Assembly (NCBI GenBank): GCA_902574205.1
Contig: CACGMS010000002.1
Location: forward strand, 22,746-86,745
DNA: 64,000 nt
DNA from: an uncultured Candidatus Hydrogenedens sp.
GTDB lineage: Bacteria; Myxococcota; UBA4151
Direction: 5' to 3'
Position numbers and translations under genes: made by a program. Position 1 is the first letter of the stretch; each line of letters opens with the position of its first letter. Of this stretch, positions 413-25,489 are shown piece after piece. The notes beneath the pieces were generated by a model. It saw only the letters and a list, made by a program, of their open reading frames with translations, had not been told where the DNA came from and made no database searches.

Positions 413-413
413 T

Positions 414-447
414 GTAACACTGCTATACATGTTTGACGGGCTATAAT
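414..447 (+). promoter_or_regulatory. Candidate sigma70-type promoter for the downstream operon, with a -10 TATAAT at 442-447 and a weak -35.
   Basis: A TATAAT hexamer sits 49 nt upstream of ATG 496. The only -35-like hexamer, GTAACA, lies about 22 nt upstream, which is poor spacing. Confidence 0.2.
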
Positions 448-495
448 AGGGCTTGTTACCTGCGCGGCCTGACCGTGAGAGGCTTGGAGATTGCG

Positions 496-1320: not shown

Positions 1321-1326
1321 CCCACT

Positions 1327-3675: not shown

Positions 3676-6600
3676 CGCGTGGACTAACGCTGGCACTCGG
3701 TTTCTTTTTAGCCGCCCAGGTTGTTGCTCAGGGTCAGCCGGATACAGCCAAGCAATCGGAAGACGCTGAACCAGCACCAGCGAAAGCCGGGTCGACAGAC
3801 TCAAAGGCAGCAGAGCAACCATCAAATGATGATCCGCCAGAGGCGGGAGCCGCTGTGGCTGAGGCGCAGCAAAAGACGCCAGAGCAGTTAGCGAAAGAGA
3901 AAGCCAAAAAAGAATTTGAAGAGACCGTTGCTCGCTTCAAAAAGGTCTCTGATGAGTTCAATGCTGAGATTATGGCGACGATCAAGCGCAAGCGAGATGC
4001 TCGCATGCGCCGCATCGATATCGATTTTGAACAGCGTATCGGCGAGTTAGAGCGGCGTGAATCCGAGCGACGTAAAGGTGCAATTGAAGCATTTGAGCGC
4101 TTTGTGAGTCGCTATGCTTATGATGCCGAATATTCACCTCAAGCGATGTTTCGATTGGCTGAACTCTACTTTGAGCAAGCTAAATACGACTACAATGATG
4201 CCGATGAGGAGTTTTCTAGGCAGCTTGAATTGTTTGAGCAGAAAAAGATTGGCAAAGAGCCCGATGCGCCGGTTTTGGATTTGGCTAAGAGCATTAAGTT
4301 GTACGAGACAATCCTCAAGCGCTTTCCAAAGTTCGAACAAAACGACGGTGTTCAATATCTCCTAGCGTTTTGTTTAGAGGAGACCGGCGAATTTGAGCGC
4401 AGCCTGTCGAATTATGAAGGCTTGGTCGCTAACTACCCCGACAGTAAGTTTGTACCTGAAGTCTGGTTGCGTATCGGTGAAAATCATTTCACTGAAGATC
4501 GGTTATGCGAAGCGCTTGATGCTTATCGTCGGGTACTCAACAATCCCGAGTCAGCTTTGTACGATAAGGCACTCTACAAAGTCGCGTGGACGCACTATCG
4601 CCTCGATCGTTTTGATGCGGCGTACAAGCGCTTCATCGAGTTGATCGATTTTTCGGATAAAAAAGCTGAAGAAACCGGTGAGAGTGGATCAGACCTTAGG
4701 AAAGAGGCGTTGCAATACGTCGCTGTTGCTGCCGTTGAACAGGGGTGGGGGCGGCCTGCGACGGGCGAAGAGTTAGATCAGTGTAAAGCGGTTGTAGCTC
4801 AAGACGAGTTGTACGACGAAAAACAGGCTGAGTTGATGGATGAGTATGATGCCAAGGGGATCACGCCACCAGAAGTCTCAGCTGGTGACCGTTTGGAGCA
4901 GATGTTCGCTGCGGTGGGTGGGCGTAGCTACCAACGTGAAGTGTATTTAGAGGTGGCTAAGGTCCTGTTCGACCAAGCCGCATGGCAGAAGTATACGCCG
5001 ATCGCTAAGCGGGTGATCGAGCTTGACCCTATGCACCCGGATAATCCGAACGTGGCGATGAATATTATTGCTGCTTATGACCAACTGGGTCGCGAGAAGC
5101 TCGCTGAGGGCGCTGCTGCGCGTGAGGCATTGTTTACGACTTATGGTCCGGGTACCGAGTGGCAAGAGGCGAACAAAAATCGCCCTTCGGTGATTCGAAA
5201 GGCGATGAAGCTGGCTCAAGACGCTTTGATTTCCTCGGCCTTGTTTCGACTCGACCTTGCCCAGAAATACTTCCAGGAAGAGAAGGTCGCTTTAGCCTCT
5301 GAAGAAGCTCGAGTTTCTGCGCAGATGCTTTCTGACTACATCGAGCGATTTCCTTATGACCCAAATCTCTACGAGTACAACTATTACCTAGGTATTGGTT
5401 ATACAATGTCGGTGCAGTTTCTTAAGGCAGCCGACGTCTTTGAGTTGGTACGCGACGATAAGAAGAATAGTAAATATCGCGAGGATGCGGCTTACCGTGC
5501 GTTCTTGAACTTGCAGGCCGAGGTCGATTCGCAAACTCAAAAAGGTACGTTGCCTGAGCCGCCACCGCTAGCGGATACTCCGCAGGAGATTCCTCGCCTT
5601 TTGGTGCGTTTGATCGACGCGTCGATGAGGTACATCAAATCAAGTCCAAACACCGAAGATACACCGCGTTTCTACTTTAATGCAGCGACAATTTATGCCC
5701 AATACTCACACAAGTCGAAAGCCGATAAATGGTACCGAAAACTGATCGATACCTTCCCTGAGTCGGAAGGGGCGGTGGATGCTGCTCGATGGGTGCTCAA
5801 TGAGTACTCTGCTACAGAAGACTGGAAGAACGTTGAGGCCTGGTGTCGCCGTATGCTCAAGATTGGCGTCGGTAAAGACAACGAAGAATTCAAAGAGCAG
5901 ATGAGCAAAAGCGCTGCCGGTGCTGTGTATAAGCAAGCCGTCGCTGCGTTTGGTAAAAAGGAATTCCAACTGGCGCATGACGAGTTTTTGCGCTTGGTCA
6001 AGGAGGACCCGAAGAATCAGTTTGCAGCTAAGGCGCTGTATTCAGCAGCTCAGTCAATGGCTGAACTTAAGCGCTTTTTGTCGGCCGGTCAGCTTTATGA
6101 GCGAGTCTTCAAAGAGTACCCAGAAGATAAAGATCTCGCTGCAAAAGCATTATTTAATGTTGCATCGACGGCCTATGAGGGCTTTGAGTTCGATCGCGCC
6201 ATCTCATTGTATTTGAAATTGGTGTCCGATTACAAAGATTTCCCCGATCGAGCCGATGCGCTCTACAACGCTGCTGTTGCGCTACAGAGCACCGAACAGT
6301 TCAAGCGCGCCGCGCTGTTGTTTCAGAAATACACCAAGCTGTTTAAAGATCGGCCTGATGTACCTGAGGTGTTTTTCAATTCGGCTTTGGTTTGGGAGCA
6401 GGCGAAAGACGATCGCCGCATGAAACGAACATTTAATGAGTTTATTCGTAAGTACGGCAGTAAGAAAGAACAAGGCGGGCGTGTCGTTCAAATCTATTCG
6501 AAGTTTAGCGACCAATTGTGGGACGAGTTGGTGACTTTGAAATCGAAGCCGCCGAAAAGCAGGGCTCAGCGCCGGCGGTGGTCTAAATCGGTCAAGAATG

Positions 6601-7640
6601 CGCGAAAGAAAGTCGACCGATTTGTTGATAAAACGCTGGATGAATACAAAAAACGAGGTTTTGCACCGCAAACGATTGAGGCAGCTTATGCTGCTAAGGC
6701 GCATTTTCGTAAACTCGAAGCTGAATTCGAAGAGTACGCGGCGCTCGATTTTGGTGTGCAGGCACGAAAAGATGTTGAGCTTGCAAAGAAGCTTCAAAAG
6801 CGCATCAAAGAGAAGTTTGAATGGGCGAACAATCTTGAGAAAAAGTACCTCGATATCTTCCAGTATCTGACCTTTGATTGGACCTTGGCTGCATCGTATC
6901 GAATTGGTTCGATCTGGGAGAATTTTGCCGAGAAACTCTACAATGCGCCAGTGCCGAGACAGTTTCGTAATGACGACATTATGATGGATGAGTGGAAGGT
7001 TTTGCTTGAGCAGCAAGCCGAGCCATTTGAGCAGCGTGCGGTGCAAAAGTATGGCGACCTCATCAAAGAGGCGCGCAAGCGGAAGTTCCGCAACATGTGG
7101 ACGAAAAAGGCACTTCAGAGTTTGAATCGTTATGCGCGAGACGAATGGCCGATCGAAAAAGAAGCAATTACGAGTGGTCTTGAGGCGTTGTTGCCTGGTG
7201 ACTTGTTCGCTCAGCCCGCAGCTTATCGAAAGCCGCCACCACCGCCGCCGGAACCCAAAGACAAGGGCGAAGAGAAGCCTGAGGATAAGGGCGAAGAGAA
7301 GTCTGAGGACAAGGGTGAAGAGAAGCCTGAGGATAAGGGCGAAGAGAAGTCTGAGGACAAGGGTGAAGAGAAGCCTGAGGATAAGGGCGAAGAGAAGTCT
7401 GAGGACAAGGGTGAAGAGAAGCCTGAGGATAAGGGCGAAGAGAAGTCTGAGGACAAGGGTGAAGAGAAAGCTGAGGACAAGGGTGAAGAGAAAGCTGAGG
7501 ATATGGTGGAAAATCAACCCGCCGTCGATGTTCAGCCGTCGGATGTGCCTAGCCCGGACCAAGTAGAAGCCGACCAAAAATCCGCCGAAGAGAAATCGGA
7601 TCAAGCGCCACCAGCCGATAGCGATGAGGAGGACAAATGA
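3672..7640 (+). CDS. Large secreted TPR-repeat protein (1322 aa) with a C-terminal acidic (DKGEEK[P/S/A]E)x10 repeat tail.
   Basis: GTG start overlaps the upstream stop. Signal peptide MTRGLTLALGFFLAAQVVAQG. Multiple TPR-like repeats with the Y/W/F-A-L pattern. A 240-bp perfect tandem repeat sits at the 3' end. Its stop overlaps the next ATG (ATGA at 7637). Confidence 0.75.
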   Translation: MTRGLTLALGFFLAAQVVAQGQPDTAKQSEDAEPAPAKAGSTDSKAAEQPSNDDPPEAGAAVAEAQQKTPEQLAKEKAKKEFEETVARFKKVSDEFNAEIMATIKRKRDARMRRIDIDFEQRIGELERRESERRKGAIEAFERFVSRYAYDAEYSPQAMFRLAELYFEQAKYDYNDADEEFSRQLELFEQKKIGKEPDAPVLDLAKSIKLYETILKRFPKFEQNDGVQYLLAFCLEETGEFERSLSNYEGLVANYPDSKFVPEVWLRIGENHFTEDRLCEALDAYRRVLNNPESALYDKALYKVAWTHYRLDRFDAAYKRFIELIDFSDKKAEETGESGSDLRKEALQYVAVAAVEQGWGRPATGEELDQCKAVVAQDELYDEKQAELMDEYDAKGITPPEVSAGDRLEQMFAAVGGRSYQREVYLEVAKVLFDQAAWQKYTPIAKRVIELDPMHPDNPNVAMNIIAAYDQLGREKLAEGAAAREALFTTYGPGTEWQEANKNRPSVIRKAMKLAQDALISSALFRLDLAQKYFQEEKVALASEEARVSAQMLSDYIERFPYDPNLYEYNYYLGIGYTMSVQFLKAADVFELVRDDKKNSKYREDAAYRAFLNLQAEVDSQTQKGTLPEPPPLADTPQEIPRLLVRLIDASMRYIKSSPNTEDTPRFYFNAATIYAQYSHKSKADKWYRKLIDTFPESEGAVDAARWVLNEYSATEDWKNVEAWCRRMLKIGVGKDNEEFKEQMSKSAAGAVYKQAVAAFGKKEFQLAHDEFLRLVKEDPKNQFAAKALYSAAQSMAELKRFLSAGQLYERVFKEYPEDKDLAAKALFNVASTAYEGFEFDRAISLYLKLVSDYKDFPDRADALYNAAVALQSTEQFKRAALLFQKYTKLFKDRPDVPEVFFNSALVWEQAKDDRRMKRTFNEFIRKYGSKKEQGGRVVQIYSKFSDQLWDELVTLKSKPPKSRAQRRRWSKSVKNARKKVDRFVDKTLDEYKKRGFAPQTIEAAYAAKAHFRKLEAEFEEYAALDFGVQARKDVELAKKLQKRIKEKFEWANNLEKKYLDIFQYLTFDWTLAASYRIGSIWENFAEKLYNAPVPRQFRNDDIMMDEWKVLLEQQAEPFEQRAVQKYGDLIKEARKRKFRNMWTKKALQSLNRYARDEWPIEKEAITSGLEALLPGDLFAQPAAYRKPPPPPPEPKDKGEEKPEDKGEEKSEDKGEEKPEDKGEEKSEDKGEEKPEDKGEEKSEDKGEEKPEDKGEEKSEDKGEEKAEDKGEEKAEDMVENQPAVDVQPSDVPSPDQVEADQKSAEEKSDQAPPADSDEEDK
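7260..7499 (+). repeat. In-frame tandem DNA repeat: 24-bp unit x10, with strict 48-bp super-period. Encodes DKGEEKPE/DKGEEKSE alternation.
   Basis: Units gacaagggYgaagagaagYctgag / gataagggcgaagagaagtctgag alternate. U3 to U8 are three perfect 48-bp copies. The last two units carry aaagct (KAE). Confidence 0.92.
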
Positions 7641-9589
7641 AACGTGTCGTACTTTTCATGATCCTCGGTGCTTCGTGTGCCTCACCGAAACCTGCCCAGC
7701 CTGAACCGGTTGTCTTTGATGAGGCGCCAGTAATGGAGCCTGAAGCCGGCCCGGCTGAGCCTGTTGAGGCGGGTTTTACACCGGATGCAGCGGCAGACGC
7801 AGGTGAGATCGTTGTTCCGGATGCAGCGGTCGATGCTGGTTCGGTGCTTCCTGATGCGGGTACTGTCGACGCAGGGCGTTTGGTTGAGCCTTTGTTGCCC
7901 GATGAGGCCCTAAAAGCGCGCTTTGAAAAAGCTCTAGACCAAGCGCTTGATGACCCGAAAGCTGCGGAGTCTGAGTTTGATGCGATCGCTGCTGTGGCAC
8001 CCAACTTCTATTTTGCGCATTACAATGCTGCGCTGTGTCGTTTGAGACAGGGTGATAAACAAGCAGGCATGGCTCGATTGCAGTCTGTGCATGACCAGTT
8101 TGGTTCGGTTTTTCATGGCGCAACAGAAGCGCTTGCTTGGGCAAAGTTTCGCGATGGCGATAAAGAAGGCGCACAGTCCCTTCTAAGGGGCGCGATGAAT
8201 GATCACCCTCGTGTTCTTGATTTGCGAAACGCGTACGGTCGCATGTTGCTTGAAGTTGGTCGTTACGAAGAGGCGGCTGCGCTATCGATGAAAACTCTTA
8301 AGAAAGACGAAGTAAATGTCTCTGCGATGCAGGTTCTAGGTTGGTCGTTTTGTAAGCGTGAAAAGATGGGGCTGTGCCTTCTCGTGCTCGGGAACGCGTT
8401 GAAAGTTCCTGGTGAAGAAGCGAACGGGATGACCAATTACCTAGCGGCTTTAGCGTACCTAAAATATGCGAAAGGTGCTCAGAAGTTAACAGCTGAAGCG
8501 CGCGTTCGCCGCGCTCATGGGTATTTGGAAAAGGCAGCCGCAGGCTTGCCAGATAAGCCAGAGGTACTGATTAATTATGCTCGCGTTTTGCTCGATCGCG
8601 GCGACCCTCAGCAGGCCTATAAGTTAAGTCGAAGAGCCACGGTTCTGCGGCCGGACTTAATCGAGGGTTGGATGCTCAAGGCTGTCGCTGAGCGCGATAA
8701 GGGTGACTATGCCGCAAGTCGAACGACCTTTTTGAAGATTCTCAACGAGTATCCAGAACAGTATTCGGTGCTTTATAATTTGGGTATTTTGTATCTCGAT
8801 CACGGCATGAAAAAGGTCGAGGGACAAGAGTTGTGTCCAGATGTCTCGATCGACGACATGAAGCAAGAAGTGGGATCGGATTTGTTTGACGGTGTCGCGG
8901 TCAAGCACGTCGACAAGACGATGGTCGACAAACTGCGCCGATTGCGTCAGGCGACGAGTTACCTTGAGCGGTTTCGTAAGAGTACGGAGCTCGATAATGA
9001 GCGCTCGATCGAAGTGGAGAAACAGATCCGCGCAGCGAATAAGGCCATTCGTAGCGAGAGTAAGAAACGCGCGCGGAACATCAAGCGTGCCAAGCGAGAA
9101 AAGAAAAAGGCAGAGCGGCGCAAAAAGCGGATGGAGCGCGAAGCCAAGAAAAAAGCTGCTGAGGAAAAGAAAGCCGCTGAGGAAAAGGCTGCTGCTGAAG
9201 CGCAGGGCGCTGCTGTAAGTGGAGAAGCTGACGGTTCATCGCAGGTTGAGTCGACGTCTTCGAAGGATAACGCGAACACGGACGCTGATGCGCCTGTTGC
9301 TGAGCCGGTGCCAACGCCAGAGACCGCAGCGGGAGCGCCGCGAGCGAACGCCGGCGAAGGCGAAGAAAAGGGCGAAGAAAAGGGCGACGAAAAGAGCGAA
9401 GAAAAGGGCGAAGAAAAGAGCGACGAAAAGAGCGACGAAAAGAGCGACGAAAATTCGTCTGAGCAAACTAAGCCTGCGTCGGAATCCAAATCTGATGATG
9501 AATCGCAGTCTTCTGCTTCGGAAGATCAGCAGCAAGCCGAAGCTGAGAATGAAGAACCTTCTGATGGTTCGGAGCGCGAAGAGAAATGA
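7637..9589 (+). CDS. TPR-repeat lipoprotein (650 aa) with a Lys-rich coiled-coil segment and an acidic EEKGE/DEKSD repeat tail.
   Basis: N-terminus MKRVVLFMILGASC has signal and lipobox-like features. TPR-like repeats at aa 120-400. KRAKREKKKAERRKKRMEREAKKKAAEEKKAAEEKAAAEA helix. 15-bp repeats at 9352-9455. Coupled by ATGA at both ends. Confidence 0.72.
   Translation: MKRVVLFMILGASCASPKPAQPEPVVFDEAPVMEPEAGPAEPVEAGFTPDAAADAGEIVVPDAAVDAGSVLPDAGTVDAGRLVEPLLPDEALKARFEKALDQALDDPKAAESEFDAIAAVAPNFYFAHYNAALCRLRQGDKQAGMARLQSVHDQFGSVFHGATEALAWAKFRDGDKEGAQSLLRGAMNDHPRVLDLRNAYGRMLLEVGRYEEAAALSMKTLKKDEVNVSAMQVLGWSFCKREKMGLCLLVLGNALKVPGEEANGMTNYLAALAYLKYAKGAQKLTAEARVRRAHGYLEKAAAGLPDKPEVLINYARVLLDRGDPQQAYKLSRRATVLRPDLIEGWMLKAVAERDKGDYAASRTTFLKILNEYPEQYSVLYNLGILYLDHGMKKVEGQELCPDVSIDDMKQEVGSDLFDGVAVKHVDKTMVDKLRRLRQATSYLERFRKSTELDNERSIEVEKQIRAANKAIRSESKKRARNIKRAKREKKKAERRKKRMEREAKKKAAEEKKAAEEKAAAEAQGAAVSGEADGSSQVESTSSKDNANTDADAPVAEPVPTPETAAGAPRANAGEGEEKGEEKGDEKSEEKGEEKSDEKSDEKSDENSSEQTKPASESKSDDESQSSASEDQQQAEAENEEPSDGSEREEK
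9352..9455 (+). repeat. Imperfect 15-bp in-frame tandem repeat (about 7 units) encoding (E/D)EK(G/S)(E/D).
   Basis: Units are gaagaaaagggcgaa / gacgaaaagagcgaa / gacgaaaagagcgac variants. Confidence 0.7.
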
Positions 9590-9660
9590 TGATCGACTTC
9601 TCGTTAATTTCGAACCCTTGCGCTCAACTGAAGCGTGTGTACCATGCGGTAGGGGAGCGT

Positions 9661-9918
9661 ATGATGCGAGTGAAGCAGCCAGGGTGGCTACGATTGCGTT
9701 GGGCTGGCCTCGCGGTCCTGGCCGTTCTAATGTTTGGCTCGACACCAGCGTATGCGAAAAAGTTGGTTATCTCAGAAGCTTTTGAAATTACTGGGAAAAT
9801 ACAGCGACCTCAGGCGATGTATATCCTCCAGCGACAAAAGCTAAATCTCAAGGGTCTTCAACTTCGCCGGAGTCTAATTCCCAAGCTCTTAGAAAGTATG
9901 CGCAAGCCGCCACTTTGA
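9661..9918 (+). CDS. Small secreted hypothetical protein (about 85 aa).
   Basis: In the 9586-9918 ORF, the internal start ATG 9661 (after GGGGAG) gives the signal peptide MMRVKQPGWLRLRWAGLAVLAVLMFGSTPAYA. No recognisable domain. Confidence 0.3.
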   Translation: MMRVKQPGWLRLRWAGLAVLAVLMFGSTPAYAKKLVISEAFEITGKIQRPQAMYILQRQKLNLKGLQLRRSLIPKLLESMRKPPL

Positions 9919-10020
9919 CGGCTTGCCACACAAAAGAAAGTTAACTAACAACCCTCTTCAGATAATTGTGTGGTCCAAAATCTTGGGTCACTGAGGACAA
10001 GAGACATACAGGAGGTTCTC

Positions 10021-10671
10021 ATGTCGGTAGTTGCCGAGTTTTACAAACAGGGTGGTACTTGGATGCATCCCATCGCATTCGTGTCGGTGGTGGTGGTCGC
10101 GGTTTGTGCGGAGCGGATTTATTTCCTCTGGTTCCGTTACAACCTAAATGCTCACAGTTTCATGGGTCAGATTCAAAAGCTGATCATGGAAAACAGTGTC
10201 GATCGGGCGATCAAGCTGTGCAATGCTGAGCAGCATGCTGCGTTGCCGAGGATCGTGAAATCCGGTCTGACTCGCGCCAACAAAGGTGAGCAAGAAATCA
10301 CAAACGCTGTCGAAGAGATGGTGCTTGAGATGACCCCGCTCATCAGCAAGCGGATGGCATGGCTTCCGACGTTGGCGTCGTTGGCAACGATGCTCGGTCT
10401 TCTTGGTACGATTATCGGTATGATCGAAGCGTTCGCCGCCGTGGCGAAGGCAGCGCCTGATCAGAAGCAGGAAATGCTTGCCGGTGCTATTGCTATCGCG
10501 ATGAACACCACGGCGTTTGGTCTGATGGTCGCGATCCCGACCATGTTCCTTAGTCTGATTCTCAACACGTTGGTGAAGAAGATTATGGATGAAATTGATC
10601 AATACAGCATCAAGCTGGTTAATATGCTTGTCCTGCGTGGTCAGGGTGGGACCAACCCGCTCAATCGCTAG
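10021..10671 (+). CDS. MotA/TolQ/ExbB-family proton channel (AglR/TolQ-like).
   Basis: AGGAGG lies 6 nt upstream of ATG 10021, so the ORF-track start at 9970 is unlikely. About 216 aa with three TM helices and the conserved TolQ/ExbB C-terminal TM pair (LASLATMLGLLGTIIGMIEAF...AIAMNTTAFGLMVAIPTMF). Confidence 0.82.
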   Translation: MSVVAEFYKQGGTWMHPIAFVSVVVVAVCAERIYFLWFRYNLNAHSFMGQIQKLIMENSVDRAIKLCNAEQHAALPRIVKSGLTRANKGEQEITNAVEEMVLEMTPLISKRMAWLPTLASLATMLGLLGTIIGMIEAFAAVAKAAPDQKQEMLAGAIAIAMNTTAFGLMVAIPTMFLSLILNTLVKKIMDEIDQYSIKLVNMLVLRGQGGTNPLNR

Positions 10672-10751
10672 GAAGTGAATTGAGTGAATTGAGTCCTGTC
10701 GCTGGCGACGGTGGCTCTCTTATGGTTGTCTGAATATGTTGGAGTGACAGC

Positions 10752-11522
10752 GTGGCACGCAAAAAGATCAAGGAAGAAGTCCCTGAGCCAAACTTGGTTC
10801 CTGTGATGAACCTGGTGATGTTGTTGATCCCGTTCTTGTTGATGGCTTCGGCCTTCTTCGAAGTGGCGATCATTAACGTCAGTGCGCCGAAGGTAGCTTC
10901 TGGGCCGAGCTCGGATGATACCCCTAAAGATGATAAGCCGAAACTCAATCTGACCGTTGTGGTTAGTGACGGTGGTTTCAAGATTTGTGCGTATGGTGGT
11001 TGTCTTGGACCGGGCGGGGTTCGAGCTGAGGGTGGCGCCGCAAACGGTCCTGGGGCAGGTGGTAAGCCAACCGTTGCAACGACGCGCTTCTCGCATGAGT
11101 GCGTCGATAAAACTGCAACGCCTGCTCCTCCGGCATGTACCTTGCCGTTGCTTGCTTCGTGTCGGTCTGACGGCAGCGCACCTCATGATTTGCCGTATCC
11201 CGAGCGTTTGGCGAAAAATATGGATACGAACGGTGGCAGTCGCAAGGACTGCGATGGTGACGGTAAAGCCGATGTAGATATCTGCAAGGGTGAAGCAACA
11301 GACTGCAATTATCAGAATTATGACTACGCTGCATTGCGCAAGCATCTAGCTAAACTCAAGGCGGGAGCTGAGCAGGAGCGTAAGGTGATGATCATGGCCG
11401 ACGAAGGTATTCCCTTTGAGGTAGTCGTTGGGGTTATGGATATCGCTCGTGATATGAAGACCGAGAGCGGGGAGACGAAAGAGTTGTTCCCCGACGTGGT
11501 CCTTTCGCCGGGCTTCCAGTAG
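10752..11522 (+). CDS. ExbD/TolR-family protein (AglQ/AglS-like) with a roughly 110-aa Gly/Cys-rich periplasmic insertion.
   Basis: GTG start after GGAGTGA. Basic N-terminus plus TM (NLVPVMNLVMLLIPFLLMASAFF) as in ExbD. The C-terminal ExbD core is RKVMIMADEGIPFEVVVGVMDIARDMK. An 8-Cys Gly-rich insert lies between the first beta-strand and the core. Confidence 0.7.
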   Translation: MARKKIKEEVPEPNLVPVMNLVMLLIPFLLMASAFFEVAIINVSAPKVASGPSSDDTPKDDKPKLNLTVVVSDGGFKICAYGGCLGPGGVRAEGGAANGPGAGGKPTVATTRFSHECVDKTATPAPPACTLPLLASCRSDGSAPHDLPYPERLAKNMDTNGGSRKDCDGDGKADVDICKGEATDCNYQNYDYAALRKHLAKLKAGAEQERKVMIMADEGIPFEVVVGVMDIARDMKTESGETKELFPDVVLSPGFQ

Positions 11523-11541
11523 TCCGAAAGGAAGGTAAATC

Positions 11542-12144
11542 GTGACCGAAGAGCAAAATGTCGAGTCGGTTGAAGAGCAGAAGGCCGTTGAGTCGGTCGA
11601 CGGTGCTTATCCTGGATGGGATGAGCAACAACCGCCAGCGAAGAAGAAGAAACAGGCAGGAGGTATTGGTGACGAAGAGGTCCCGATGCCGAATATTACG
11701 TCGCTACTCGACGCGCTGTTCATTATTCTCGTGTTCCTCCTGAAAAGCTATTCAACCAACCCAGTTTCGGTGACTCAGAGCGCGAGTCTGAAGTTAGCGG
11801 CTTCCGCTGCGCAGCTCAGTCCGAAAGATGCATTGCCGGTGATTATTGATAAAAAAGGTATCACCGTCGACGGTATCGAGACGATGAAGTTTGATGATAA
11901 GGGTATGGTTCCGGCGGATCAGGTTGCCGGTCACATTATTGCGCCTTTGTCGCAGGCATTGCGTGATCAAGCTGAGAAGCAGCGTAAGCTGGCTCAGTTG
12001 AACACCGATGTCAGTTTTAAAGGTGAGTTGATTCTTATTTGCGATAAGGATTTACCATATAAAATCCTGCGCGATATCTTAATGACGGCTGGCGATGCGG
12101 AGTATGGTAATTTCCGTTTCGCTGTGATTAAGGCTGCGGGCTGA
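11542..12144 (+). CDS. ExbD/TolR-family protein (second paralogue).
   Basis: GTG start after AGGAAGG. Acidic N-terminal extension, then TM (ITSLLDALFIILVFLLK). The periplasmic ExbD-like core is GELILICDKDLPYKILRDILMTAGDAEYGNFRFAV. Confidence 0.7.
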   Translation: MTEEQNVESVEEQKAVESVDGAYPGWDEQQPPAKKKKQAGGIGDEEVPMPNITSLLDALFIILVFLLKSYSTNPVSVTQSASLKLAASAAQLSPKDALPVIIDKKGITVDGIETMKFDDKGMVPADQVAGHIIAPLSQALRDQAEKQRKLAQLNTDVSFKGELILICDKDLPYKILRDILMTAGDAEYGNFRFAVIKAAG

Positions 12145-12175
12145 TTACCCACCAGAGAGAAAGGCGACGCCATCT

Positions 12176-13534
12176 ATGGGCACGAAGGTTCTCAAGGTAG
12201 CGGTCACTCAAGGTAAAAAAATCCTTGAGCAGAAACTCATCAGTAGCCGAACTTCGGTTACCGTGGGGACTGCGGCATCGAATACATTGCATGTAAGCGG
12301 TGAAGGCTTACCGGATACTTATAATCTGTTTGAGGTTGTTGGCGGAAAGTATTGCCTGAACTTCACGGAGAAGATGACGGGCAAGGTCAATGTTGGTGGT
12401 GGTCAGCTTGATTTTGAAACTGCCCGACAACAGACCGGTGTGCGTAAGCGCGGTAATGAATACCAAATGGTACTCAGCGAGGCGTCCAAAGGTGCAATCG
12501 AGTTGGGTGCTGGCGGTGTCCGCATCATCTTTCAGTTTGTCGATGCGCCCGCTGATGCGGTGCCTGCAAAACTGGCAGATTCGACGTATATGCCGCCTCT
12601 GCAGCGCTTGGATCGAGTGTTTTGGGGTTGTTTGGTTGTCTCTGCGTTGCTGCATACGGGTGGGGTGATCGGTGCGATGAACGCGCCGCCACCGCCGAAG
12701 CGCAAGATCACCGAGTTGCCTGATCGTTTTGCTAAGATGATCATCAAGAAGCCGCCAAAAGTTAAGCCGAAAGAAGAAAAGAAAAAAGAGCCCAAGAAAG
12801 ACGGTGAGAAGAAGCCGTCCGAGAAAAAATCCGAAAAGAAAGCTGAGCCGAAACCAGAGAAAAAGCCGGCTAAAAAAGCTCAAACAGCTGCCAAGAAAGA
12901 AGAGCGTCGTGCCCAGGCTCAACAAGCCGTCCGCCAGAGCGCTGTCTTCAAGGCTTTAGCGATCGCTACGTCCGGCGGCGGCGCTGGCGTCGTGTTTCAG
13001 GCAGACGGTGACCCTCGAACTGATGTTAGCGCAGCGTTAGCGGCTTCGGGCGGAGCGGGTATCGCCGCTGCGGATGGAGGGCCCGGTGGGCCTGCTGTTC
13101 GAGGTGGCTCCGGTGGCGGAGGGCCTGTTGGTATTGGTGAAGTGGGCGGCGTGGCCGTCGGCGGCGGTGGGGGTAAGATAGCCAAGCGAAAAGGCCCGAA
13201 AATCCGCGTACGTATGAAGATGAGTAAGCCGAAGATTGACGACGGCGAGCTGGACGGAAAATCAGTTGCTCGTAAAATTCGGGCTCGAAAGCGTGCGTTC
13301 CAGGCTTGTTATGAGCGAGAACTCAAACGTAATCCGTCGCTCAAAGGTAAGCTGGTCTTAGAAGTTACGGTTGGCGAGAATGGTCGTGTCGCCGATATCT
13401 TTGTCGCCGATAACGCGCTCAATAACGCTGTGGCTAACTGCATCAAAGGCAAGATGCGTTCGATTCGTTTCCCGAAACCAGAGGGTGGCGAAGCAACGTT
13501 CTCCTATCCGTTCGTCTTTGCATCGAGTGGGTAG
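12176..13534 (+). CDS. Bitopic GltG(PglI)/GltJ(AgmX)-like protein. It has a cytoplasmic FHA-like domain, one TM, a Lys/Pro/Glu-rich linker, a Gly-rich segment and a C-terminal TonB-C-like AgmX/PglI-type domain.
   Basis: The N-terminal 135 aa carry a degenerate FHA pattern (VTVGTAASNTLHV...GGKYCLNFTEKMTGKVNVGG). TM is VFWGCLVVSALLHTGGVIGAM. Linker is PPPPKRK...KPKEEKKKEPKKDGEKKPSEKKSEKKAEPKPEKKPAKK. C-terminus is FQACYERELKRNPSLKGKLVLEVTVGENGRVADIFV...CIKGKMRSIRFPKPEGGEATFSYPFVF, which resembles the AgmX/PglI C-terminal (TonB-C-like) family. Confidence 0.65.
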   Translation: MGTKVLKVAVTQGKKILEQKLISSRTSVTVGTAASNTLHVSGEGLPDTYNLFEVVGGKYCLNFTEKMTGKVNVGGGQLDFETARQQTGVRKRGNEYQMVLSEASKGAIELGAGGVRIIFQFVDAPADAVPAKLADSTYMPPLQRLDRVFWGCLVVSALLHTGGVIGAMNAPPPPKRKITELPDRFAKMIIKKPPKVKPKEEKKKEPKKDGEKKPSEKKSEKKAEPKPEKKPAKKAQTAAKKEERRAQAQQAVRQSAVFKALAIATSGGGAGVVFQADGDPRTDVSAALAASGGAGIAAADGGPGGPAVRGGSGGGGPVGIGEVGGVAVGGGGGKIAKRKGPKIRVRMKMSKPKIDDGELDGKSVARKIRARKRAFQACYERELKRNPSLKGKLVLEVTVGENGRVADIFVADNALNNAVANCIKGKMRSIRFPKPEGGEATFSYPFVFASSG

Positions 13535-13536
13535 TT

Positions 13537-14463
13537 ATGCAGCGGCTGGATCGTGCGGGGATTGAAGTCCTTCTCGAGACTGAACAGTTCAAGAGTTGGT
13601 TTGCCGAACTTAACGGTCTCAATCATCGCCTCGAACTTTTAGAATCCTCGATTGAGCGCGCTGCGGAGGCGTGCGCAGAAGCCGGCTTCCGATGCACCTA
13701 TTGGCAAGAAGCTGCTGAAGAGGCGTTGTTGCGGTCAGCCGACCTGGGTAATACCTGCCATAATCTGCGTACGGAGATCGCTCGCTTAGAGAACGAAGCT
13801 TTTAGACGGCTTGCAGAGTTTGAGAGCGTTCGGGATGAGGTCACCGATCTGTGGATCAAAATTACAGCGATCGAGCATCGTTGTGATGATCATCCGGACG
13901 AAGCAACTCGCGTAAGGTCTCGAGCTCGCTATCAAGGCGAGTTGAAAAAACTTCGAGCAGCCTATGCATCCAGTAATGAGCGTAAAGAAGCACTTTGGCA
14001 GGCCGAAGAGCTGCTTTGGATGCAAGTGGCGGAGCAGACCCTCATGGTGCCCGAGATCGAAGTTCGTTCTCAGCGTTTAGAAGAGCGCTATGGACAGTTG
14101 ATGCACCGCGTTGAGGCGTTACAAGAGCGGGAGAAGCGTGCGCAACAAACGCTGGCTGATGAGCGTGAGGAACTGGTTGAAGTTCAGAAGCAAATGGCAA
14201 AATTGCGCTCTGCGGCAAAGATGTCGTTTTCCTGTGTTTGCCATGAAAATTTTCTCTATTGGCCGATTGGTGACGATGCGAAACTTGCTCTGGTTGTCGC
14301 CCTCAATTCGAATCCGACGGATTACAATATTGAGGTGAAGAGCGGGCAATTGTATCAATGTGAAACCGAGAGAGGCGTCCGGTATCTTGAGCCCGTCAGT
14401 GTCGGTACGTCGGTTGTGGAAGAAGATGAGCGTCTTATTCGGTTCTTTGAGGAGGTCGCATGA
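13537..14463 (+). CDS. Cytoplasmic coiled-coil hypothetical protein (308 aa).
   Basis: Starts 3 bp after the upstream stop. Heptad-rich, no TM or signal peptide. Its stop overlaps the next ATG (ATGA at 14460). Confidence 0.6.
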   Translation: MQRLDRAGIEVLLETEQFKSWFAELNGLNHRLELLESSIERAAEACAEAGFRCTYWQEAAEEALLRSADLGNTCHNLRTEIARLENEAFRRLAEFESVRDEVTDLWIKITAIEHRCDDHPDEATRVRSRARYQGELKKLRAAYASSNERKEALWQAEELLWMQVAEQTLMVPEIEVRSQRLEERYGQLMHRVEALQEREKRAQQTLADEREELVEVQKQMAKLRSAAKMSFSCVCHENFLYWPIGDDAKLALVVALNSNPTDYNIEVKSGQLYQCETERGVRYLEPVSVGTSVVEEDERLIRFFEEVA

Positions 14464-14918
14464 GTGAGGCTTATGATCGGGTCGAAGCGCTTCAGGCCTC
14501 GCCTTTGTTTAACGATCTTTTGCCGTTGGAAAAACAATATCTTGCGGATTTAGCAGTCCATCGCCAACTCGGAGCAGGCGACATCCTTTTTGAGGAAGGT
14601 GATGTTGGTGATGCGATGTATGTCGTGGTCAGTGGTGAGTTGGGCGTTGAGGTTGGCGAGAATGGTGTAAATCACGAAATAGCGACTTTAGTGGCGCCTG
14701 ATTTTGTGGGTGAAATGGCGTTGATTGATAAACGGCCTAGGGCAGCTCGCGTTCGCGCAAAATCGGATGCGGTTTTGTTAGCGATCAGCCATGCGAACAT
14801 TTACTCTTTTGCCCGTGTTCATCGAAGCGGTTTTACTTGGTTAGTGGTCAATATTGCGAAAAACCTGGCCAGCCGCTTACGTGCGATGAACGACGCTGCT
14901 TCGGGTGTGGCCGAGTGA
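14460..14918 (+). CDS. Standalone cyclic-nucleotide-binding (CAP-family cNMP) domain protein with no HTH.
   Basis: GDILFEEGDVGDAMYVVVSGEL...FVGEMALIDKRPRAARVRA is the canonical cNMP-binding beta-roll with the phosphate-binding GE...R(A)A. Only 152 aa, so no effector domain is fused. Confidence 0.8.
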   Translation: MSEAYDRVEALQASPLFNDLLPLEKQYLADLAVHRQLGAGDILFEEGDVGDAMYVVVSGELGVEVGENGVNHEIATLVAPDFVGEMALIDKRPRAARVRAKSDAVLLAISHANIYSFARVHRSGFTWLVVNIAKNLASRLRAMNDAASGVAE

Positions 14919-15028
14919 CCTTTTGGCCACCATTTTAAAAGGGTTACTTTGAACGACCATTTCCCTTGCCCCGATCGGCCGTTTCCCGGATACTATAACT
15001 CTAGCGCCGCGGTCTGTGATTTTGGCGC

Positions 15029-16333
15029 GTGTTTGGAGCCTTTGATTTGTTCATGTTAATGAACCAAAACCGCTTGTTGGTAGCGGTCTTAGGCTTCGCG
15101 TTCGTCAGCGCGCCTGCGTACGCAGAAGGCGGCATCAAGCTCACCTCGGAAGCACGAATGCACCCGTTGGTGCAAACTGGGTTCGCATTCGATTCGAATC
15201 CGCACCGTGCTTCTGGCGATACAGCTAAAGGCGATGGGTTCTTTCTGGTTCAAGGCGGCTTTGAGTTGAGTGTACCTTCTGATCGGCTCGACGTCCGCAT
15301 GAACAATGTCATCAGTTACAACCACTATCTGGGGTTGATGGCGGATCCGAACACCGTGGGGGGGAATACGGCAGCGCTCTCGACGGTCAAGGGTGGTTCG
15401 GCACTCCAGTTGCTCGGCAATCGTAAGGGTAAACTGCGATGGGGGCTGGCTGGGAAGGTCAGTCGCCTTGATGAGCCAGAGCCCCTGAATCTGGGTATTC
15501 GGCAGGGGCGTTGGTCCAATGGTGTTGATACGTTCTTGGAGTGGCGCCCCAGTGGCGGTGCTTTGGGCGTCAAACCAGCAGCCAGTTTGGTGTATGATGC
15601 GTATGACGCGTCAGGTGGGGTAGGCGCAACGAAGCTCAATAAGGTCGCTCCGGGTCTGAGACTTGATTTTGACTGGCGCTTTCTCCCGCGGACGCAGTTC
15701 GTGATCAACAATCATTGGACATCGGTGACGTACGTAAACGACGAAGCGGCTAACGGTTACGCTGATCCTGTGAGTTCAGAACTGGGCGTTATGGGACAGT
15801 TTTCGCCGCGTCTTTCAGCGATCATTGCCGTGGGTTATTCGGGTAGTCAGTTTCTGACATCGGACAAGAATACGGACAACGCGACGAAAACGTTTTCTGG
15901 GCAAGCCGAGATTCGTTACGATGAACGACGAAAGGTGACCTGGCGATTAGGTTTGCGCCGTCGGCTGCTGCCCGTATCGGTTTTTGGCTTCATGGCGGAC
16001 AACAGTGCCTATGCGCGCTACTCTGAGAAGTATTTGGGCGGTCTGCGCGTGGTGACACAACTCAAGGCAAGCCTTCGTACATTTGGCGCGCAGACGTCTG
16101 CACAAGACGTCATCCAGATTGGTACGGGTGAAGCACGAGCAGATATCACCGCGAGCTTTGATGCAAACATTCTCTGGCAACCGCAGAAATGGTGGGTAGC
16201 TGGTTTGACGAATCGTTTTGAGTACTTCACCACCAATAGTGTGTTCAAGTCAGCCGGTATGGCAGGTGATTCGCTGATTAGTCCTGATTTTGGGCGTAAT
16301 CTAACCATGTTGGTGTTCGAAGCCAAGTACTGA
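15029..16333 (+). CDS. Outer-membrane beta-barrel protein (partner of the downstream short OPX protein).
   Basis: Signal peptide (LLVAVLGFAFVSAPAYA). Alternating amphipathic beta-strand pattern throughout. Ends ...LTMLVFEAKY with a terminal aromatic typical of OMP barrels. A start at 15053 or 15059 is also possible. TGATG overlap with the next gene. Confidence 0.7.
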   Translation: MFGAFDLFMLMNQNRLLVAVLGFAFVSAPAYAEGGIKLTSEARMHPLVQTGFAFDSNPHRASGDTAKGDGFFLVQGGFELSVPSDRLDVRMNNVISYNHYLGLMADPNTVGGNTAALSTVKGGSALQLLGNRKGKLRWGLAGKVSRLDEPEPLNLGIRQGRWSNGVDTFLEWRPSGGALGVKPAASLVYDAYDASGGVGATKLNKVAPGLRLDFDWRFLPRTQFVINNHWTSVTYVNDEAANGYADPVSSELGVMGQFSPRLSAIIAVGYSGSQFLTSDKNTDNATKTFSGQAEIRYDERRKVTWRLGLRRRLLPVSVFGFMADNSAYARYSEKYLGGLRVVTQLKASLRTFGAQTSAQDVIQIGTGEARADITASFDANILWQPQKWWVAGLTNRFEYFTTNSVFKSAGMAGDSLISPDFGRNLTMLVFEAKY

Positions 16334-16926
16334 TGCGACTTGGTTGGGTTTGGATCGTCCTGGCGCTGGGTGCCTGTCGCGGGACAGTCGCTCCGGCACC
16401 TAAAACCGTTGATATCGAGAGTATTCGCGAGACGATTGAGAAGCGTCGTCACTTTATTGGCGCGGGTGACTCGGTTCAGATCCAAGTGTACCGAGAAAAG
16501 GAACTGTCGCTGAGCCAGATCGTCAGTCAGGATGGGACCATTTCGTTGCCGGTCACCGGAGAAGTCCAAGTCGCTGGAAAAACGCGTCAGCAGATTGAAG
16601 CTGAGCTCGAGACTAAACTGGTTAAGGCCGGTTTGAGTAACCCGAGGGTGTCCGTTTTGATCAAAAGGCTGATCTCCGCAAAGGTCTCTGTCTATGGTGA
16701 GGTGACTAAGCCTGGTACCTTTCCGTACGAGTCTGGGATGACAGTTGTTCAGGCGATTACCATGGCCGACGGGTTTAAGCGGACCGCCCTACAAGATAGA
16801 GTCATGATTATTCATGCCAATGGGGAGCGCCTCGAGGTGCCTGTGCGCCAGATTGGGTTGGGAAAAGTTCCGAATGTACCTTTGTTACCCGGTGATGTGA
16901 TCTACGTCCCAGAGAGCTATTTTTAG
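16333..16926 (+). CDS. Short Wza-like outer-membrane polysaccharide export (OPX) protein with a Poly_export/SLBB domain.
   Basis: VQIQVYREKELS...ISQDGTISLPVTGEVQVAGKTRQQIEAELETKL matches the PES/Wza N-terminal motif and is followed by an SLBB-like segment. At 197 aa it lacks the C-terminal OM-spanning helix of full-length Wza. Confidence 0.75.
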   Translation: MRLGWVWIVLALGACRGTVAPAPKTVDIESIRETIEKRRHFIGAGDSVQIQVYREKELSLSQIVSQDGTISLPVTGEVQVAGKTRQQIEAELETKLVKAGLSNPRVSVLIKRLISAKVSVYGEVTKPGTFPYESGMTVVQAITMADGFKRTALQDRVMIIHANGERLEVPVRQIGLGKVPNVPLLPGDVIYVPESYF

Positions 16927-16945
16927 TCGCTGAAAGGACTGGGTC

Positions 16946-17683
16946 ATGAAGGGTATTGTGCTCGCGGGTGGTATGGGGACGCGTCTCGCTCCCTTGACGC
17001 ACGTCACCAACAAGCATTTGTTACCGGTTTATGATCGACCCATGGTCGATTATCCGCTCGAGACATTGATCACGGCAGGTATCGAGGAAATCATGGTTGT
17101 TACGGGCGGTGAACACGCTGGTGATTTCCTCAAGTTGATGGGTAACGGTGAACGCCTCGGTTTACGTCATCTGAACTACACCTACCAAAAAGGTCATGGT
17201 GGCATCGCGGAAGCGCTTGGTCTGTGCGCGCATTGGGCAGATGGTGAGCCGATCTGCGTGATCTTAGGCGATAACCTTTTTGAGTATCAGTTGAGCCCAG
17301 GACTCATGGCGTTTGCGGATGATCCTAAAGGTGCCATGGTCTTCTTAAAGCAAGTCCATGATCCTGAGCGGTTTGGTGTCGCCACTCTTGAGGGTGATCG
17401 TGTCGTGGATATCACCGAGAAGCCCTCGCAACCGAATAGCGATTGGGCAGTGACCGGCGCCTATTGTTACGATGCAGAGGTCTTTGAAATCATTAAAACG
17501 CTCAAGCCAAGTGCTCGTGGCGAGCTTGAAATTACGGACGTCAATAATGCGTATCTGCAACGAGGTATGTTGCAAGCGCACAAGCTCGACGGTTGGTGGA
17601 CCGATGCAGGAACTTTCGAGAGTCTCTTGCGCGCTGGCAATTTGGTGGCCAAAAGCGGTGCCAATAAATCGCACGAGTCGTAA
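16946..17683 (+). CDS. Sugar-1-phosphate nucleotidyltransferase (short-form glucose-1-phosphate thymidylyl/uridylyltransferase family).
   Basis: MKGIVLAGGMGTRLAPLTHVTNKHLLPVYDRPMVDYPLE is the canonical NTP-transferase N-terminal motif. Confidence 0.82.
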   Translation: MKGIVLAGGMGTRLAPLTHVTNKHLLPVYDRPMVDYPLETLITAGIEEIMVVTGGEHAGDFLKLMGNGERLGLRHLNYTYQKGHGGIAEALGLCAHWADGEPICVILGDNLFEYQLSPGLMAFADDPKGAMVFLKQVHDPERFGVATLEGDRVVDITEKPSQPNSDWAVTGAYCYDAEVFEIIKTLKPSARGELEITDVNNAYLQRGMLQAHKLDGWWTDAGTFESLLRAGNLVAKSGANKSHES

Positions 17684-17691
17684 AAGGTATC

Positions 17692-19935: not shown

Positions 19936-20006
19936 CGACTAAAGGCGTTGCGACGGCGGGCTTGCTTGCTTATTGAGGGGACCGCTTTCGACGATAGGGG
20001 TAAACG

Positions 20007-25487: not shown

Positions 25488-25489
25488 TC

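Follow-up and report, generated by a model that had tools for sequence, protein, structure and literature searches.

Directly upstream of the open reading frame under study lie genes for a TolQ-like and two ExbD-like motor subunits. The locus raises the question which kind of envelope transducer this frame encodes and to what such a motor would be coupled. We addressed it within a window of 64 kb, by which we mean the whole stretch of myxococcotal DNA that was analyzed. The frame starts with ATG and codes for 452 amino acids, and its parts and neighboring genes are listed in Table 1. All strings quoted in the preliminary description were recovered from the translation, namely VTVG (aa 28-31), NTLHV (aa 36-40) and GGKYCLNFTEKMTGKVNVGG (aa 56-75) near the N terminus, PKVKPKEE...PAKK (aa 194-234) in the linker, as well as CYERELKRNPSL and CIKGKM, which start from C378 and C422, respectively. 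We found 129 homologues at E<=1e-3, the majority with a length of 430-470 aa, and 320 GTDB species genomes code for relatives. If only the N-terminal domain and the transmembrane (TM) helix were used as query, matches were obtained in 719 clusters of 50% identity. Within the 64-kb window, tblastn delivered no paralogue of the N- or the C-terminal domain. Given these numbers of homologues and genomes, and since both cysteines of the previously recognized pair, C378 and C422, are invariant in an alignment of 77 family members, the features of the protein are not a product of chance.

Table 1. Parts of the protein and genes of its cluster in window positions. Locus counts refer to the best 80 loci, and their denominators differ gene by gene.
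Feature	Position	Strand	Evidence
Complete frame, 452 aa, G4-type GltG paralogue, TonB/TolA-like bitopic transducer (putative)	12176..13534	+	Profile matches, homologues, alignment, AlphaFold2
Cytoplasmic degenerate FHA-like beta-sandwich, aa 1-125, equivalent to GltG 'central FHA'	12176..12550	+	AlphaFold2 pLDDT>90, Foldseek, GltG HMM
Single TM helix, aa 147-169	12614..12682	+	AlphaFold2 helix, pLDDT ~95; hydropathy maximum
S-x-x-x-H motif SALLH in TM helix, aa 156-160	12641..12655	+	Family alignment
Conserved juxtamembrane periplasmic motif LPDRFAK, aa 181-187	12716..12736	+	Alignment: D183 73/77, R184 invariant
Lys/Pro/Glu-rich spacer, aa 190-245, disordered, variable length	12743..12910	+	Conservation, pLDDT
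Gly/Ala-rich segment with conserved motifs, aa 251-340	12926..13195	+	Conservation; pLDDT<50 when modelled alone
AgmX/PglI C-terminal domain, TonB-CTD-like fold, aa 346-452	13211..13531	+	NF033768, Foldseek, pLDDT>90, invariant C378 and C422
MglB-like gene	14-409	+ (by co-directional block)	
GltC-like TPR protein	1327..3675	+	Weak GltC HMM match; syntenic in 56/56 loci
GltD-like large TPR protein, 1322 aa, presumed periplasmic scaffold for Gly-rich segment and C-terminal domain	3672..7640	+	Syntenic in 60/60 loci
GltE-like TPR lipoprotein	7637..9589	+	GltE HMM E 1.6e-8, under cutoff; syntenic in 64/69 loci
Small secreted protein, 110 aa, GltF position	9586..9918	+	In 76/76 loci
TolQ/ExbB/MotA-like proton-channel subunit (AglR-like), presumed docking partner of TM helix and FHA-like domain	9970..10671	+	PF01618 E 1.5e-24
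ExbD/TolR-like subunit 1, Cys-rich insertion	10752..11522	+	PF02472 E 1.4e-12
ExbD/TolR-like subunit 2, TM Asp kept	11542..12144	+	PF02472 E 4.9e-9
Coiled-coil protein, 308 aa, start 2 bp past stop of the frame under study	13537..14463	+	In 17/73 loci
Stand-alone cyclic-nucleotide-binding protein	14460..14918	+	PF00027 E 2.8e-20; in 56/73 loci
Wzp-like outer-membrane beta-barrel candidate	15029..16333	+	E 1e-17 vs Archangium gene at WzpB position; 58/64 loci
Short class-3 OPX protein (Wza-like)	16333..16926	+	Poly_export and SLBB domains; 56/63 loci

The N-terminal domain was modelled alone by AlphaFold2 with a pLDDT of 89 and a pTM of 0.81, and its 50 best Foldseek matches in the PDB are FHA domains without exception (50/50; E 1.3e-3 to 4.5e-2, TMq 0.37-0.56), although the E values are modest, with 1.3e-3 as the best, and sequence identity amounts to 6-16%. 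Thus, the domain is ordered and adopts the FHA-like fold that the preliminary description had proposed. Pfam searches at E<=10 with the whole protein and with eight N-terminal domains of the family returned neither an FHA nor any other domain for this region, and the FHA assignment is therefore one by fold only. In the alignment, the domain coincides with the one that precedes the TM helix in long homologues bearing an FHA domain, and the N terminus of the protein falls where the second domain of GltG is located. The FHA-like domain hence corresponds to the second, TM-proximal 'central FHA' of GltG, which was published in 2025 (PMC11761067). The Foldseek matches of this domain comprise the type III secretion system (T3SS) structures 4a0e and 6uid and the unnamed T3SS protein 4d9v. 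The inner-ring protein SctD (YscD, PscD, EscD) of these systems is likewise a bitopic inner-membrane protein with a degenerate cytoplasmic FHA fold beside its TM helix. However, its periplasmic part consists of ring-building domains instead of a TonB-CTD, and it lacks motor coupling, and we regard the resemblance as an analogy of design and not as demonstrated homology.

The only strongly hydrophobic 19-residue window of the protein begins at aa 148 (mean Kyte-Doolittle value 1.72) and falls into the helix modelled at aa 147-169 with a pLDDT of ~95, in agreement with the TM segment that had been expected at aa 150-170. Within this helix, S156 is found in 62/77 and H160 in 60/77 aligned family members; the counterparts are S16/H20 in TonB and S18/H22 in TolA. 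About 20% of the family lack the S-x-x-x-H motif, including a homologue that adjoins motor genes (locus L082). Neither the S156-x-x-x-H160 motif nor the link of the cluster to Wzp/Wza export was part of the preliminary description.

The following stretch, aa 170-262, is composed of 29% K, 14% P and 12% E. The spacer itself (aa 190-245) shows top-residue frequencies of 0.26-0.47, gaps of up to 37%, a pLDDT of ~45-70 per 10-residue block and weak profile matches to the spacer regions of TolA and TonB, so that the TonB-like Lys-rich linker claimed earlier is indeed present. Toward the C-terminal domain, aa 263-345 (83 aa) contain 34% G and 17% A. Of the nine 10-residue blocks between aa 251 and 340, eight show top-residue frequencies of 0.58-0.77, and the block at aa 301-310 reaches 0.40. 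The Gly/Ala-rich stretch thus sits where it had been described, but with a conservation equal to that of the folded domains, it is not a simple spacer. The corresponding segment of GltG is predicted to fold into a crevice of GltD, where a disordered segment wraps GltD (PMC11761067).

For the C-terminal domain, the AgmX/PglI model NF033768 (NCBIfam) scored 94.5 bits against a cutoff of 40 at aa 360-448. A search of the PDB with the family profile led to TonB CTDs at E ~1e-3, and Foldseek delivered 6fip, 6sly, 5lw8, 1u07 and 2gsk_B (E 0.03-0.13, TMt 0.5-0.6). Profile and fold are thus in line with the TonB-C alpha/beta fold assumed before. On the protein itself, PF03544 (Pfam TonB_C) gave no match at threshold and TIGR01352 stayed below threshold with 16.5 bits against 27.1, while PF03544 was detected in 62 of the 77 family members at E<0.01.

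Which member of the GltG-related proteins is encoded here? The GltG equivalog model (NCBIfam NF033760) aligns aa 8-452 to its positions 206-649 with 176.7 bits at E 8e-52, against a cutoff of 650. In GltG of Myxococcus xanthus (PglI, MXAN_4867), a TM-proximal FHA-like domain and one TM helix are followed by a long periplasmic linker, which is disordered, and by a TonB-CTD-like domain of the AgmX/PglI type (PMC11761067). All of these are shared by the protein under study, in which Foldseek and AlphaFold2 reveal a beta-sandwich of the GltG-type 'central FHA' fold at aa 1-123, followed by the single TM helix, and both proteins are encoded together with GltD-, GltE- and GltF-type genes. The architecture is therefore already known from GltG, and the newer part is the gene context. 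However, the canonical N-terminal FHA domain (PF00498; aa 26-90 in MXAN_4867) is absent according to Pfam. The protein lacks the whole N-terminal FHA region of GltG (aa 1-114), a predicted binding site for GltI (PMC11761067), together with the following linker, comprises 452 instead of 640 aa, and its cluster is not the gliding cluster. The GltJ model (NF033761) reaches 46.3 bits against a cutoff of 450 and covers aa 364-448 alone, while the N terminus is FHA-like in contrast to the ZnR and GYF domains of GltJ. Thus, of the earlier label 'GltG/GltJ-type', the GltG-like architecture holds; the similarity to GltJ is restricted to the C-terminal domain, and the protein is neither GltG nor GltJ itself. 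It rather resembles the GltG paralogue of the M. xanthus G4 cluster, which has ~450 aa, the same four-part architecture and the same gene order, although the identity is ~34% and the TolQ-like, the two ExbD-like and the coiled-coil genes sit inside the cluster in the lineage of the window. Judged by synteny, the protein is a short G4-type GltG paralogue of Myxococcota. As such, it probably transduces force at the inner membrane within a 'core complex' of the Glt/Agl type.

Between positions 14 and 19935, the genes all run in one direction, and the gaps that separate them measure -4 to 110 bp. In a scan of positions 1-20000, promoter-like sites occurred at chance level and no terminator-like sites were found within the intergenic gaps of the cluster. 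The MglB-like gene is not followed by an mglA before the cluster begins, and a MreB gene is located in the window as well. The first ExbD-like subunit carries a TM Asn at the place of the usual proton-binding Asp of ExbD/TolR. The small protein at the GltF position is 42% identical to its Archangium counterpart (E 2e-14), and the Wza-like protein matches a 186-aa polysaccharide export protein in the PDB (9n9a, E 2e-33). The order GltC-GltD-GltE-small-transducer-cNMP-...-Wzp-Wza is common to the window and the G4 cluster (Luciano et al. 2011), which adjoins mglBA. In Archangium, the locus reads MglB-MglA-x-GltC-GltD-GltE-small-transducer homologue-cNMP-x-421 aa-Poly_export. Among the best 80 loci, a Wzp-like gene follows downstream in 58/64 and a Wza-like gene in 56/63, and most loci of Myxococcaceae have the cluster without motor genes. 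Divergent loci show the order motor-transducer-barrel-Wza-Wzc, in one case plus Wzy, and in two of these divergent loci Wzc or Wzy genes are contiguous. A long FHA-bearing homologue is located in a separate Glt-like cluster without Wza.

In M. xanthus, the export genes for BPS, wzpB and wzaB, are found at the end of the G4 cluster. We take mglA of this species to be MXAN_1925. WzpB and WzaB are MXAN_1916 and MXAN_1915, respectively, tags that fit the G4 order (PMC9603273, PMC12819527), and the G4 gltD homologue MXAN_1922 (PMC3169522) is the counterpart of the 1322-aa GltD-like protein. By gene counting between these published anchors, the putative counterpart of the transducer would be MXAN_1919. 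A polar mutation in the G4 gltD homologue caused no motility phenotype, and no other phenotype was recorded (PMC3169522). The adjacency of Glt cluster and Wzp/Wza genes is unmentioned in the OPX and Glt papers that we searched, in which wzaB is described as 'orphan-like'.

Four other explanations have to be weighed against a G4-type transducer. The protein shares with TonB and TolA the presumed N-in bitopic layout, the S-x-x-x-H motif in the TM helix, a charged Pro-rich spacer, a small alpha/beta C-terminal domain and, encoded next to it, homologues of ExbB/TolQ and ExbD/TolR as presumed partners. A conventional TonB that energizes TonB-dependent outer-membrane receptors for nutrient uptake would account for the TonB-CTD-like fold, the motif, the Pro/Lys spacer and the adjacent ExbB-/ExbD-like genes. 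However, the 125-aa folded cytoplasmic FHA-like domain, the conserved Gly-rich segment and the invariant cysteine pair are features that TonB and TolA do not have, the TonB models stay under their cutoffs, and synteny with the TPR Glt-like genes is near-universal. As the scanned ORFs of the window include no gene for a TonB-dependent receptor or a TonB-box partner and the additional domains are not those of TonB, we rejected this reading as exceedingly improbable. A TolA analogue, acting in a Tol-Pal-like system of envelope integrity or cell division, would fit to the TolQ- and TolR-like neighbors, to the weak TolA spacer match and to the TPR proteins, which match the YbgF/CpoB model (129 bits against a cutoff of 90 for the 1322-aa protein). 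These CpoB matches are generic TPR repeats within much larger proteins, though, and neither tolB nor pal was found in the cluster, which co-occurs with Wzp/Wza genes instead. Since, in addition, the C-terminal domain belongs to an AgmX/PglI-specific family, we discarded the TolA reading as well and consider it very unlikely.

A role as true GltG (or GltJ) of the adventurous-gliding (Agl-Glt) machinery, powering surface motility, seems more natural at first sight. GltG is the best named HMM, GltC-, GltD- and GltE-like as well as motor genes are adjacent, and the window contains the MglB-like gene and MreB. Nevertheless, this reading is improbable and was rejected because of the sub-cutoff scores for both models, the missing canonical FHA domain and the G4 synteny. 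Disruption of the G4 paralogue cluster left motility of M. xanthus intact (PMC3169522), the scanned ORFs of the window include no relative of the adhesion and platform genes gltA, B, H, K, I or J and no other adhesin-like gene, and a long homologue that does bear the FHA domain resides in a separate cluster. Quite improbable is also a working phosphothreonine reader at the N terminus, which would place the transducer under the control of Ser/Thr kinases. Myxococcota are rich in such kinases, the FHA fold is given, and Ser/Thr at position 48 is kept in 63/77 family members. However, if the ligand residues are mapped by sequence pattern and secondary structure, the canonical Arg and Ser-x-x-His are missing, just as the preliminary description had stated. 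The residue after the invariant G31 is Q, T or S, with Arg outside the five commonest residues there, the family alignment has no His three residues past S/T48, where L, V or I is found instead, and no Asn precedes G69 at the NG turn. Besides, an FHA signal was not found at the sequence level, and the structural matches include degenerate TM-adjacent FHA domains of the T3SS SctD/YscD type, which to our knowledge do not bind phosphothreonine.

Returning to the G4-type transducer, the following mechanism could be envisioned. The lack of a signal peptide, the single TM helix and the TonB/GltG architecture suggest a cytoplasmic N and a periplasmic C terminus. The helix face with S156-x-x-x-H160 would bind a pentamer formed by the TolQ-like protein, whose gene lies 1.5 kb upstream, with the two ExbD-like proteins as the presumed central plug. 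This docking step is proposed because of the analogy to TonB-ExbBD and TolA-TolQR, the interaction of the GltG TM helix with AglR in a two-hybrid assay (PMC3169522) and the AlphaFold prediction that the central FHA and TM helix of GltG dock on AglR5QS (PMC11761067). Instead of reading phosphothreonine, the degenerate FHA-like domain may clamp the cytoplasmic face of the channel or bind the coiled-coil or cNMP-binding neighbors. The variable Lys/Pro/Glu spacer would then span the periplasm. Following the GltG model and the observed conservation, the Gly-rich segment might fold on the GltD-like TPR scaffold, and the disulfide-capable TonB-CTD-like domain would dock both on this scaffold and on the small GltF-position protein. 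Proton flow through the motor would finally be converted into movement or conformational change of a periplasmic/outer-membrane assembly, most likely one connected with the Wzp-like porin and the Wza-like export proteins of the cluster and not with gliding adhesins.

While the protein itself adds little, the conserved export link is the most interesting lead. In this lineage, motor genes, transducer, TPR scaffold and the Wzp/Wza pair form one co-directional block, to which related loci add Wzc and Wzy, and this conserved gene link to polysaccharide export hints at the function of the G4-type branch. One might tentatively speculate that the G4-type core complex, with the transducer as motor coupler, is a proton-motive-force-driven accessory of class-3 OPX secretion. 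It would connect the TolQR-like motor via the periplasmic TPR scaffold to the Wzp porin/Wza/Wzc translocon, and thereby gate, power or spatially distribute polymer export. Among the GltG paralogues, NfsG of the Agl-Nfs spore-coat machinery links a TolQR-type motor with the handling of a Wza-type-exported polysaccharide (PMC3858216), and, compared by description, the protein under study would resemble it in such a coupling. In difference to the present cluster, genes of the gltA, gltB, gltC and gltH types belong to the nfs cluster, and its exo export genes do not adjoin it.

If true, such an export accessory would be a parallel to Agl-Nfs, which acts on the spore-coat polymer Exo, and it would assign a function to the 'ancestral core' of the gliding machinery. 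With wzpB and wzaB at the end of its G4 cluster, M. xanthus offers the possibility to test an export role. The export link provides a concrete, testable hypothesis for the function of the Glt 'core complex' and of the G4, G5 and M2 paralogues of M. xanthus.

The best-supported reading of the 452-aa protein is that of a TonB/TolA-like transducer, for which the analysis shows domain folds, a transmembrane (TM) motif, a conservation pattern and a gene neighbourhood. The sequence strings quoted in the preliminary description were all found at the expected positions; its observation was confirmed and its interpretation, once corrected, is supported. Sequence searches led to 129 homologues at E<=1e-3, mostly of 430-470 aa and mostly from Myxococcota. 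Relatives are encoded by 320 GTDB species genomes, the closest being a Myxococcota MAG (92% identity), while the N-terminal domain plus TM as sole query matched 719 clusters at the 50% identity level. An AlphaFold2 model from a 77-sequence alignment comprises a beta-sandwich (aa 1-123, pLDDT >90), a helix (aa 147-169, pLDDT ~95), a low-confidence region (aa 180-340) and an alpha/beta domain (aa 346-449, pLDDT >90). The protein adds one more member to an already known kind.

Modelled by itself, the N-terminal domain reached a pLDDT of 89 and a pTM of 0.81, and all of its best Foldseek matches in the PDB (50/50) were FHA domains, among them GarA/OdhI, Rv1747, KAPP, Ki67 and MDC1, at modest E-values (1.3e-3 to 4.5e-2; TMq 0.37-0.56). 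Also matched were the degenerate FHA domains of two T3SS proteins, YscD and PscD, together with 4d9v, a further T3SS protein (unnamed). At sequence level, the N-terminal domains of eight family members gave no FHA signal at E<=10. With residues mapped by pattern and secondary structure, G31 is invariant and followed by Q, T or S, Arg being outside the five commonest residues; the FHA His position is taken by L, V or I, and G69 lacks the preceding Asn. The canonical Arg and Ser-x-x-His are thus missing as proposed, although S/T48 is common in the family. Since ligand-binding residues are absent from an FHA-like fold, the 'degenerate FHA-like' reading is supported. Alignment with long FHA-bearing homologues places this domain at their pre-TM domain. 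Three variants of ~925 aa (P0121, P0123, P0124) carry three FHA-like copies each: two in N-terminal tandem, then a multi-helix hydrophobic region and a third copy, followed by TM, linker and AgmX/PglI C-terminal domain as in the 452-aa protein.

The claimed TM segment was recovered as the sole strongly hydrophobic 19-residue stretch, beginning at aa 148 within the confident helix. A feature absent from the preliminary description is S156-x-x-x-H160 in this helix, the motif found in the membrane anchors of TonB and TolA. Ser is found in 62 and His in 60 of 77 family members, and the motif is missing in ~20% of the family. Composition bears out the described Lys-rich linker (aa 170-262: 29% Lys, 14% Pro, 12% Glu) and the Gly/Ala-rich stretch behind it (aa 263-345: 34% Gly, 17% Ala). 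These are two unlike parts: conservation is low and length variable in the Lys/Pro/Glu spacer (aa 191-240), whereas the Gly-rich part (aa 251-335) reaches the conservation level of the folded domains, except in one 10-residue block. Such a pattern would suit folding of the Gly-rich segment on a partner protein. For the C-terminal domain, an AgmX/PglI-type TonB-C assignment holds: the NCBIfam AgmX/PglI model was passed (94.5 bits, cutoff 40), the family profile matched TonB C-terminal domains in the PDB (E ~1e-3), and TonB-CTD structures were among the Foldseek matches, with modest E-values. Pfam TonB_C matched 62 of 77 family members, with no match on the protein itself. Both cysteines of the reported pair, C378 and C422, are invariant in the 77-sequence alignment and may form a disulfide. 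One homologue (P0100, 784 aa) apparently mixes a segment like the ExbD-like Cys-rich insertion described below with two AgmX/PglI-type C-terminal domains; it could be a genuine fusion or else an artefact of assembly.

The proposed 'GltG/GltJ-type' label stands in part. GltG is the best named HMM, but with 176.7 bits it falls far below the cutoff of 650 and aligns only over model positions 206-649; for the GltJ model, the match is restricted to the C-terminal domain. Myxococcus xanthus GltG comprises three folded parts and a TM helix: a canonical FHA at the N terminus (aa 1-114), for which GltI is the predicted partner; a 'newly identified central FHA' (aa 190-329) directly ahead of the TM helix (aa 330-348), with a predicted position on the AglR pentamer; and, behind a disordered segment predicted to wrap GltD, a TonB-CTD-like domain (PMC11761067). 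The 452-aa protein thus corresponds to GltG without its first ~200 residues.

The genes between 14 and 19935 run in one direction, spaced by -4 to 110 bp.

Features of the window
Feature	Position	Strand	Remark
1, MglB/Roadblock-like	14-409	+	28% identity to Archangium MglB, E 1e-12
2, 295 aa			after MglB-like
3-5, GltC-like, GltD-like (1322 aa), GltE-like			TPR genes
6, 110 aa			after GltE-like
7, TolQ/ExbB-like			ahead of two ExbD-like genes
8-9, ExbD-like subunits	10752-11522 and 11542-12144	+	directly upstream of 452-aa ORF
452-aa ORF	12176..13534	+	ATG start
11-12, coiled-coil (308 aa), stand-alone cNMP-binding (152 aa)	13537-14918	+	after 452-aa ORF
13-14, Wzp-like beta-barrel (434 aa), short class-3 Wza-like OPX	15029-16926	+	OPX: Poly_export/SLBB
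End of the co-directional run, RmlA-like and ArnT-like			after Poly_export/SLBB gene
In-frame tandem repeats, 24/48-bp unit	7260-7501		about 10 copies; C terminus of GltD-like protein
In-frame tandem repeats, 12/36-bp unit	9360-9453		about 8 copies; C terminus of GltE-like protein
Type II secretion cluster	22132-35752	+	GspC, D, E, F, pseudopilins, GspJ- and GspK-like, PilM-like GspL
Adenylate/guanylate cyclase	35920-36954
MreB	38124-39152

The Wza-like protein matches a 186-aa polysaccharide export protein (PDB 9n9a, E 2e-33), and the 434-aa protein matches the Archangium gene at the WzpB position (E 1e-17). The coiled-coil and cNMP-binding genes are translationally coupled to the 452-aa gene (gaps 2 and -4 bp). 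In the first ExbD-like subunit, Asn occupies the site of the expected TM proton-binding Asp (PVMNLVML), and roughly 130 aa of Cys-rich sequence are inserted; the second subunit has retained this Asp (SLLDALFI). The repeats encode acidic tails of KGEEK/EDKGEEK type. Up to ~53.8 kb, a strongly positive GC skew of about +0.12 to +0.18 goes with nearly all long ORFs lying on the plus strand; beyond, genes flip to the minus strand and skew drops to about 0.

Synteny was surveyed in the best 80 of 320 loci, mostly Myxococcaceae, with enough flanking sequence. Among assessed loci, the small GltF-position gene (76/76), GltD-like (60/60) and GltC-like genes (56/56) were always present, and cNMP-binding genes frequently (56/73); Wzp-like (58/64) and Wza-like genes (56/63) lie downstream of the Glt-like cluster. 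Of the 80 loci, those of the window's own clade are the only ones with motor genes inside the cluster. A relative of 60% identity agrees with the window in gene order. Two divergent loci also hold the motor inside: motor-target-168 aa-423 aa-Poly_export-Wzc (L082, where the first ExbD-like counterpart keeps its Asp) and GltC/D-like-motor-target-257 aa-406 aa-Poly_export-Wzc-Wzy (L086), 'target' being the 452-aa counterpart. A long FHA-bearing homologue sits in a Glt-like cluster without Wza. Both mglB and mglA precede the cluster in 45-51 Myxococcaceae loci; the window's MglB-like ORF sits immediately ahead of its cluster, and no mglA separates the two.

In Archangium gephyra, the order is MglB-MglA-247 aa-GltC-like-GltD-like-GltE-like-97 aa-homologue (34% identity)-cNMP-188 aa-421 aa-Poly_export. 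It matches gene for gene the published M. xanthus anchors, namely the G4 gltD homologue MXAN_1922 (PMC3169522), WzpB (MXAN_1916) and WzaB (MXAN_1915) (PMC9603273, PMC12819527), so that by gene order the 452-aa protein is assigned as the G4-type GltG paralogue. By gene counting, its M. xanthus counterpart would be MXAN_1919. This order makes the 'orphan-like' wzpB and wzaB of M. xanthus the closing genes of G4.

By analogy with GltG-AglR, a contact seen in a two-hybrid result (PMC3169522) and predicted in an AlphaFold model (PMC11761067), the TM and FHA-like domain would dock on the TolQ-like pentamer. Likewise by analogy, the GltD-like scaffold and the small protein would be the partners of the Gly-rich segment and C-terminal domain. 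The AglR homologue MXAN_3003 is reported to bind neither GltG nor NfsG (PMC3858216), and is thus free to serve other paralogues. Gliding is probably not the output: the scan of the window turned up neither relatives of gltA, B, H, K, I or J nor any other adhesin-like gene. In M. xanthus, gliding is normal in a polar mutant of MXAN_1922 (PMC3169522). The OPX literature examined calls wzaB 'orphan-like' and mentions neither Glt nor TonB, and targeted searches found no published link between a G4-type Glt-like cluster and polysaccharide export. The conserved adjacency to Wzp/Wza (and Wzc/Wzy) suggests such a coupling, and recalls Agl-Nfs, which acts on spore-coat polymer exported via Wza (PMC3858216). 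It is chiefly this linkage to export genes that gives the protein its moderate interest.
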